A program made the translations under genes and the position numbers. DNA of 64,000 bases from Escherichia coli. Its GTDB lineage: Bacteria; Pseudomonadota; Gammaproteobacteria; Enterobacterales; Enterobacteriaceae. Numbering within the stretch: position 1 is the first letter of the stretch; each line of letters opens with the position of its first letter. The stretch is taken from NCBI RefSeq assembly GCF_003334405.1, contig NZ_QOWM01000017.1. One strand, 5' to 3'. This document shows, one piece after another, positions 18,284-19,423 of this stretch. The notes beneath the pieces were generated by a model. That model did not search any database, was not told where the DNA came from, and saw only the letters and a list, made by a program, of their open reading frames with translations.

Positions 18284-19423
18284 ATGAGCGCGGGAAGCCC
18301 AAAATTCACCGTTCGCCGCATTGCGGCTTTGTCACTGGTTTCGCTATGGCTGGCAGGCTGTTCTGACACTTCAAATCCACCGGCACCGGTCAGCTCCGTT
18401 AATGGCAATGCGCCTGCAAATACTAATTCTGGTATGTTGATTACGCCGCCGCCGAAAATGGGGACGACGTCTACAGCGCAGCAACCGCAAATTCAGCCGG
18501 TACAGCAGCCACAAATTCAGGCTACTCAACAACCGCAAATCCAGCCAGTGCAGCCAGTAGCTCAGCAGCCGGTACAGATGGAAAACGGACGCATCGTCTA
18601 TAACCGTCAGTATGGGAACATTCCGAAAGGCAGTTATAGCGGCAGTACCTATACCGTGAAAAAAGGCGACACACTTTTCTATATCGCCTGGATTACTGGC
18701 AACGATTTCCGTGACCTTGCTCAGCGCAACAATATTCAGGCACCATACGCGCTGAACGTTGGTCAGACCTTGCAGGTGGGTAATGCTTCCGGTACGCCAA
18801 TCACTGGCGGAAATGCCATTACCCAGGCCGACGCAGCAGAGCAAGGAGTTGTGATCAAGCCTGCACAAAATTCCACCGTTGCTGTTGCGTCGCAACCGAC
18901 AATTACGTATTCTGAATCTTCGGGTGAACAGAGTGCTAACAAAATGTTGCCGAACAACAAGCCAGCTGCGACCACGGTCACAGCGCCTGTAACGGTACCA
19001 ACAGCAAGCACAACCGAGCCAACTGTCAGCAGTACATCAACCAGTACGCCTATCTCCACCTGGCGCTGGCCGACTGAGGGCAAAGTGATCGAAACCTTTG
19101 GCGCTTCTGAGGGGGGCAACAAGGGGATTGATATCGCAGGCAGCAAAGGACAGGCAATTATCGCGACCGCAGATGGCCGCGTTGTTTATGCTGGTAACGC
19201 GCTGCGCGGCTACGGTAATCTGATTATCATCAAACATAATGATGATTACCTGAGTGCCTACGCCCATAACGACACAATGCTGGTCCGGGAACAACAAGAA
19301 GTGAAGGCGGGGCAAAAAATAGCAACCATGGGTAGCACCGGAACCAGTTCAACACGCTTGCATTTTGAAATTCGTTACAAGGGGAAATCCGTAAACCCGC
19401 TGCGTTATTTGCCGCAGCGATAA
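18284..19423 (+). CDS. nlpD: Murein hydrolase activator lipoprotein NlpD (LysM plus degenerate M23 domain)
   Basis: 379 aa; lipobox LAGC; Q/P-rich tandem repeats; C-terminal M23-like region; the rpoS promoter region lies within this gene. Confidence 0.95.

Follow-up and report, generated by a model that had tools for sequence, protein, structure and literature searches.

The glutamine- and proline-rich (Q/P-rich) repeat of nlpD in the Escherichia coli DNA analyzed here (the window, 64 kb at its full length) is the standard three-unit allele, and the repeat itself is an already known, ordinary feature of this gene. It is probably a Q/P/V-rich stretch of low complexity that has expanded in a lineage-specific manner in the disordered and length-tolerant tether of NlpD, with length alleles that would have arisen by slippage or unequal exchange. 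Among E. coli strains these alleles form a defined series of one, three or five units, plus or minus one QPV.

Results

The nlpD Gene and Its Product

The nlpD coding sequence occupies 18284..19423 on the plus strand, as do all nlpD and promoter features described below. It encodes 379 amino acids plus stop and was identified as a murein hydrolase (amidase) activator lipoprotein from the list of open reading frames, from RefSeq, where nlpD is the name given under every matching E. coli genome, and from the NCBIfam equivalog NF008123 (score 678.7 bits, cut-off 311, residues 4-379 covered). The order of the open reading frames in the window is truD-surE-pcm-nlpD-rpoS; surE, pcm, nlpD and rpoS are annotated likewise in RefSeq in nine matched genomes.

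NlpD has the signal peptide and lipobox cysteine of a lipoprotein. The lipobox L-A-G-C was read at residues 23-26 (18350..18361), and its Cys26, the lipid-anchored residue 1 of the mature protein, is invariant across a 104-sequence alignment of the NlpD family. AF2 predicted a helix at residues 6-23. A RefSeq start located 45 nt 3′ of the ATG at 18284, which omits the equivalent of 18284-18328, is annotated in RM9387, JEONG-1266 and other RefSeq loci and yields a 364-residue product beginning LVSLWLAGC. Because a protein begun there would lose the positive charges (K/R) of its signal peptide, the 379-residue reading from ATG 18284 looks to be the correct one.

Two domains follow in the order that the NlpD family requires: a peptidoglycan-binding LysM domain at residues 123-165 (18650..18778; Pfam PF01476, E = 4.2e-12; pLDDT 93-95) and a C-terminal Peptidase_M23 or probably degenerate LytM domain (dLytM) at residues 279-372 (19118..19399; Pfam PF01551, E = 4.6e-33; pLDDT 91-98). 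DipM and EnvC are solved relatives of the M23 region. The metal ligands of M23 peptidases lie in HxxxD and HxH motifs; NlpD reads NKGID at residues 279-283 and H-F-E, not HxH, at residues 360-362, which would be consistent with a degenerate site. As described in PMC5533458, NlpD acts on AmiC, an amidase, and activates it at the division site. Just 5′ of the repeats, a PPP motif at residues 55-57 (18446..18454, positioned from the sequence) has served as a model of a weak EF-P-dependent ribosome stall site (PMC4176338).

Anatomy of the Repeat Tract

The Q/P-rich tract, delimited from the sequence and by TRF, comprises 35 residues (amino acids 64-98) encoded by 105 bp at 18473..18577. The original prediction had placed QQPQIQ-type tandem repeats in the nlpD linker within 18470-18600, and the 35-residue peptide is found exactly as described inside that interval. 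Three phased 24-nt units of the form QQPQIQxx follow one another head-to-tail: unit 1 (U1), QQPQIQPV, at 18479..18502; unit 2 (U2), QQPQIQAT, at 18503..18526; and unit 3 (U3), again QQPQIQPV, at 18527..18550. A degenerate tail, QPVAQQPVQ, occupies 18551..18577 after unit 3. At the DNA level the units are 63-83% identical (U1/U3 20/24, U1/U2 17/24, U2/U3 15/24), and all four sites that distinguish U1 from U3 are synonymous.

Three sets of short direct repeats are embedded in the tract. The sequence CAACCGCAAAT is common to U1 (18482-18492) and U3 (18530-18540). A nested 9-nt tandem pair, CAGCCAGTG/CAGCCAGTA, encodes QPV QPV at 18542..18559, where allele alignment places the gain or loss of 9 bp. 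The longest exact repeat is the 12-nt CAGCCGGTACAG, with copies at 18494..18505 and 18566..18577, 72 nt apart.

TRF reports the tract at 18482-18546 with a period of 24, 2.7 copies, 70% matches and a score of 67, making it one of only five rows (four loci) that score at least 50 in the window; three of these rows are CRISPR arrays. Self-identity of the tract DNA is 0.59 at lag 24 and 0.58 at lag 48, most other lags giving about 0.3-0.45; lag 57 is also high, at 0.56. When the linker (residues 27-120) was shuffled, a triple hexapeptide appeared by chance in 6 of 200,000 shuffles. Escherichia coli K-12 W3110 differs from the window by one base in 301, without any indel.

It had been suggested that such repeats can confuse short-read assembly. 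Such trouble is not to be expected here, because the tract is 105 bp long, its units differ to the extent given above, and all k-mers of 15 nt or longer in 18460-18600 are unique in the window.

Other repeats were seen in the window. CRISPR arrays at 8331-9275 are built on GTGTTCCCCGCGCCAGCGGGGATAAACCG, the type I-E repeat of E. coli, were listed with periods of 61 nt and 183 nt, and lie upstream of cys/isp/truD genes, as expected for that chromosomal region. A second tandem repeat of period 24 (24588-24634; 2.0 copies, 83% matches) lies in a minus-strand open reading frame at 23441-24703.

Length Alleles in E. coli

Of 5,426 complete E. coli genomes, 5,421 were matched by a 301-bp query covering the repeat region. 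Among 60 of these genomes, evenly spread, all 56 rows aligned over the full query were exactly 301 bp long, the exceptions being three rows lacking the last 2 bp and the divergent RM9387. As this search averages identity over joined pieces and so hides indels, the census was taken with synthetic two-unit and four-unit allele queries together with junction-specific queries, and representatives were then aligned. The two-unit query in distant mode merged variants, gapped, into the identity band of the standard allele and contributed nothing to the census. The +9 junction query was non-discriminating, standard alleles aligning to it as two overlapping perfect pieces, and the +9 count comes from the other queries.

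A tract of non-standard length was present in 71 of the 5,421 genomes (1.3%). The standard three-unit allele, encoding 379 amino acids and including that of the window, accounts for about 98.7% of genomes. A one-unit allele (-48 bp, 363 amino acids) was found in 59 genomes and a five-unit allele (+48 bp, 395 amino acids) in one, the baboon isolate PapRG-04-4. Seven genomes have one QPV fewer (-9 bp, 376 amino acids) and four have one QPV more (+9 bp, 382 amino acids), while alleles of plus or minus 24 bp numbered zero among the 5,421 complete genomes. In the wider protein database, the one-unit NlpD forms a cluster with 191 member sequences, and an E. coli NlpD with a 24-residue duplication (P0003) is present. 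All indels in the tract are in frame (9, 48 and 72 nt, multiples of 3). Separately, an NlpD of 340 amino acids (P0032) has a 39-residue deletion in the second linker.

The tract is a VNTR, having head-to-tail units and a copy number that differs among strains. Comparison with other E. coli nlpD alleles, proposed together with the original prediction, shows that repeat number is not identical in all strains.

The -48 bp allele occurs in O157:H7 strains EC4115, TW14359, SS17, SS52, RM6067W and others. In total, 28 complete genomes of O157:H7 type have it and encode the 363-residue NlpD, including 2006 spinach-outbreak and super-shedder strains, and three units are retained in O157:H7 FRIK944, LSU61 and Z1811. 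SS17, EC4115 and TW14359 belong to lineage I/II, clade 8 (PMC4321836); the same paper, which describes the SS17 genome, does not mention nlpD. The one-unit allele may mark O157:H7 lineage I/II clade 8, the clade being known for these three strains.

Junctions of the Length Alleles

Alignment of the alleles places the -48 junction inside CAACCGCAAAT, the 11 nt common to U1 and U3, and the +48 allele is the reciprocal product. The -9 and +9 alleles lose or gain one copy of the CAGCCAGTG/CAGCCAGTA tandem pair, and the 24-residue duplication in P0003 fits the 72-nt register of the CAGCCGGTACAG copies. When 2 kb of flanking sequence was compared, the -48 allele was found on at least five SNP haplotypes, among them that of the window and that of O157:H7. 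Three -48 strains match the window sequence except at the junction, and O157:H7 JEONG-1266 (-48; nlpD at 1365-2453 of its locus) equals the three-unit FRIK944 except at the junction. Because it sits on at least five haplotypes, the 48-bp deletion has arisen repeatedly in E. coli.

From these junctions we infer that slipped misalignment or unequal exchange generates the nlpD length alleles. Short direct repeats would be the sites at which replication slips or exchange is unequal: the 11-nt homology between U1 and U3 would give plus or minus 48 bp, the 9-nt tandem pair gains or losses of 9 bp, and the 12-nt repeat, with copies 72 nt apart, plus 72 bp. The expectation that copy number varies between strains through slippage is therefore borne out in that the variation is real and its junctions lie at short direct repeats, but the variation is rare.

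Disorder and Length of the N-terminal Linker

The N-terminal linker, which runs from the lipid anchor to LysM (residues 27-122; 18362..18649), is predicted to be unstructured by AF2 and in published work (PMC5533458). With the 104-sequence alignment, AF2 gave pLDDT values of 46-61 for residues 61-100 and 46-69 for residues 31-110, against 91-98 for the folded domains of the same model (LysM 93-95, dLytM 91-98), and residues 24-97 were without secondary structure in this model built from 104 diverse homologues. A model from 10 near-identical orthologues had a mean pLDDT of 29 even in folded domains and was set aside. Solved structures matching NlpD N-terminal of residue 230 numbered none. Both NlpD linkers were predicted to be disordered by DISOPRED (Tsang et al., 2017; PMC5533458). 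In the 104-sequence model, then, the N-terminal segment has the character of a disordered linker, one without predicted structure between confidently folded flanks.

In 107 NlpD-family representatives with both lipobox and LysM, the linker between the two ranges from 10 to 297 amino acids (median 36), and different lineages have linkers of unrelated composition. Most distant homologues align only from about residue 100-120 on. Yersinia NlpD is without any P/Q repeat (PMC2736372). The proteins of Citrobacter and Salmonella, otherwise 85-89% identical to the NlpD of the window, have one recognizable PQIQPV unit followed by degenerate Q/P-rich sequence, and Kosakonia, Kluyvera and others have QPV-type runs of their own. 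Among the NlpD sequences compared, only those of Escherichia have the exact QQPQIQxx array. It numbers three units in E. coli, E. whittamii, Escherichia sp. E1V33 and RM9387, whereas the type strain of E. albertii has four.

Individual sequences deserve a comment. An E. albertii-like NlpD (P0004, 405 amino acids) has seven QQPQIQ units. In Salmonella bongori NlpD (P0053) the segment preceding the repeat has an unrelated sequence, as if from a compensated frameshift or an error in sequencing. The nlpD of RM9387 (1366-2505 of its locus) has about 84% identity to the repeat region of the window, and its linker is identical to the one in an entry called Escherichia fergusonii NlpD (P0010). RM9387 may thus belong to a divergent lineage of Escherichia that was deposited under the name E. 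coli, or may carry an imported segment.

Codon Variation in the QQPQIQ Core

Across sixteen QQPQIQ cores from five Escherichia lineages, 12 DNA spellings occur, with variation at all six third-codon positions and at none of the 12 first or second positions. A positional comparison of the window with RM9387 gave nine synonymous and zero non-synonymous differences in the cores, and unit positions 7-8, unlike the core, vary freely in amino acid. Because variation in the core is synonymous only, the core is under protein-level purifying selection within Escherichia. These codon comparisons show a tighter constraint than a pure spacer would require, and what is selected could be the composition of the core or a specific contact.

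The rpoS Promoter and rpoS

The rpoS start site lies 567 nt 5′ of the rpoS ATG, within nlpD (PMC10948607). Combining this distance with a reading of the sequence, the main rpoS promoter was placed at 18885..18919, with TTGCGT at 18885-18890, a 17-nt spacer, TATTCT at 18908-18913 and a start at about 18919; TTGCGT and TATTCT are plausible promoter hexamers. Downstream of the end of the tract it is about 310-340 bp to the promoter and 342 nt to the start site, and nlpD indels change nothing in the promoter or in the 567-nt leader (5′ UTR). A minor, low-level bicistronic nlpD-rpoS transcript does include the tract (PMC10948607). A consensus promoter scan of 18100-19500 returned no sigma-70-like site, the scan being too strict for the published rpoS promoter there, and an Rfam scan of 17500-20700 returned two sub-threshold chance matches only, both downstream of rpoS. 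The original prediction was right that the rpoS promoter is embedded in nlpD; variation of the tract is of little relevance to it, since the tract is 342 nt away and the indels spare the promoter.

The rpoS gene of the window (19486-20478) has an in-frame TAG at codon 217 (20134-20136), where O157:H7 FRIK944 has GAG. The stop cuts sigma-S short ahead of its C-terminal third, so that RpoS is probably defective in the strain. An identical rpoS was found in none of the 5,426 complete E. coli genomes, the best matches being 99.9% identical with one mismatch in 993. Loss-of-function rpoS alleles are a well-known polymorphism. For the strain, this TAG weighs more than the nlpD repeat.

Discussion

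The P/Q repeat of NlpD was the subject named in the title of Ichikawa et al. (1994), as cited in PMC2736372, and NlpD repeats were also described by Tidhar et al. (2009; PMC2736372). The published E. coli repeat and that of the window are the same repeat at the same position in the same gene, and no difference was seen in the window. In a literature search of incomplete coverage, neither the allele series at the population level nor the one-unit allele in O157:H7 was found to have been reported before, and the search turned up no functional assay of a variant allele. The N-terminal linker studied by Tsang, Yakhnina and Bernhardt (2017; PMC5533458) contains the repeat, and its disorder agrees with AF2. 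That work handled the linker whole; the word "repeat" occurs zero times in it and repeat number was not varied.

In the reading that we favor, Cys26 would anchor NlpD in the outer membrane, and a tether of about 95 residues would let LysM reach septal peptidoglycan, where the C-terminal dLytM would activate AmiC. The repeats would supply length and an extended, non-folding and uncharged character, with no folded structure. Copy number would hence be tolerated, from 1 to 5 units in E. coli and from 4 to 7 in E. albertii-type sequences, and we infer that the length variants of NlpD are functionally near-neutral. Low-complexity segments that span the periplasm are found in FtsN, which has a glutamine-rich linker before its SPOR domain, and in TonB, which has a proline-rich spacer. 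The likeness to NlpD would be one of layout, namely an anchored envelope protein in which a Q- or P-rich, non-folding segment leads to a domain at the peptidoglycan or the other membrane. The repeat units differ, and the analogy is drawn without any claimed sequence relationship.

Counting against a pure spacer, more than 98% of E. coli genomes hold exactly three units. This constancy could reflect selection on length and not a low mutation rate.

The constancy of three units in about 98.7% of E. coli genomes would also be accounted for if the QQPQIQ units were modules with a function tied to their sequence, such as multivalent binding, and copy number tuned NlpD activity. Their target might be a periplasmic or outer-membrane partner or septal peptidoglycan, and they might aid midcell targeting or the regulation of NlpD. 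We consider this unlikely, but it draws on several observations: core variation across Escherichia is all synonymous while positions 7-8 are free, U1 and U3 differ at four sites that are synonymous throughout, and a fusion of the N-terminal linker to mCherry had some affinity for midcell, seen as weak enrichment (PMC5533458). However, LysM alone is necessary and sufficient for midcell localization (Tsang et al., PMC5533458), the motif is absent from Yersinia NlpD and degenerate in Salmonella and Citrobacter NlpD, and most family members have far shorter, unrelated linkers. One-unit alleles also persist in a successful lineage of O157:H7 as well as on several unrelated backgrounds. The constraint on the core may act on composition (uncharged, proline- and glutamine-rich) and not on a binding motif. 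It would be a considerably longer step, and in our view an improbable one, to take QQPQIQ as a selected septal contact module whose recurrent loss of two units, seen in the O157:H7 clade 8 strains EC4115, TW14359 and SS17 and, with independent origins, on four or more further backgrounds, is adaptive for the envelope or for division.

The location of the main rpoS promoter inside nlpD, together with the inclusion of the tract in the low-level bicistronic transcript (PMC10948607), raises the question of whether the tract acts at the DNA or RNA level on rpoS expression, repeat number altering the promoter region or the nlpD-rpoS transcript. This is very improbable: the tract ends 342 nt 5′ of the start site and outside the 567-nt leader, no RNA family matches the region, and synonymous sites are free (12 spellings in 16 cores), which argues against nucleotide-level constraint.

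That the repeat or its variants are unreal, whether as a run of low complexity due to chance or as artefacts of assembly and sequencing elsewhere, in other genomes, is effectively refuted by the allele junctions, the recurrence across genomes and the conservation of the units in Escherichia: shuffling of the 35-residue segment alone does produce a triple hexapeptide in 2,293 of 200,000 cases (about 1%), and the units are only about 70% identical at the DNA level, but three identical hexapeptides stand in strict 8-residue phase with DNA peaks at lags 24 and 48, the same units occur in every Escherichia lineage examined (4 to 7 in E. albertii-type sequences), and the variants are always in frame, have junctions that fall cleanly in short homologies, recur in dozens of independently finished genomes and include a protein cluster with 191 member sequences.

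The length-tolerant tether may be compared with VNTR and contingency loci, with which it shares head-to-tail units, copy-number polymorphism among strains and recurrent independent events. It differs in that its units are long and imperfect, its changes are in frame and provide no on/off switch, and only 1.3% of genomes are non-standard. A contingency (phase-variable) locus was rejected for these reasons, the indels being in-frame changes of 9, 48 or 72 nt, rare (1.3%) and built on exact repeats of at most 12 nt, with 342 nt separating the tract from the closest promoter start that is known. The nlpD tract is one of slow, minisatellite-like drift and not of phase variation.

For the window itself the consequences are small, its repeat being standard and long described. 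The one-unit allele could be a simple PCR-size marker for the set of O157:H7 strains that includes those of the 2006 spinach outbreak. The natural alleles of 1 to 5 units constitute a ready length series for the reach of the NlpD tether, and purifying selection on the core is a small hint that the linker may be more than a featureless spacer.
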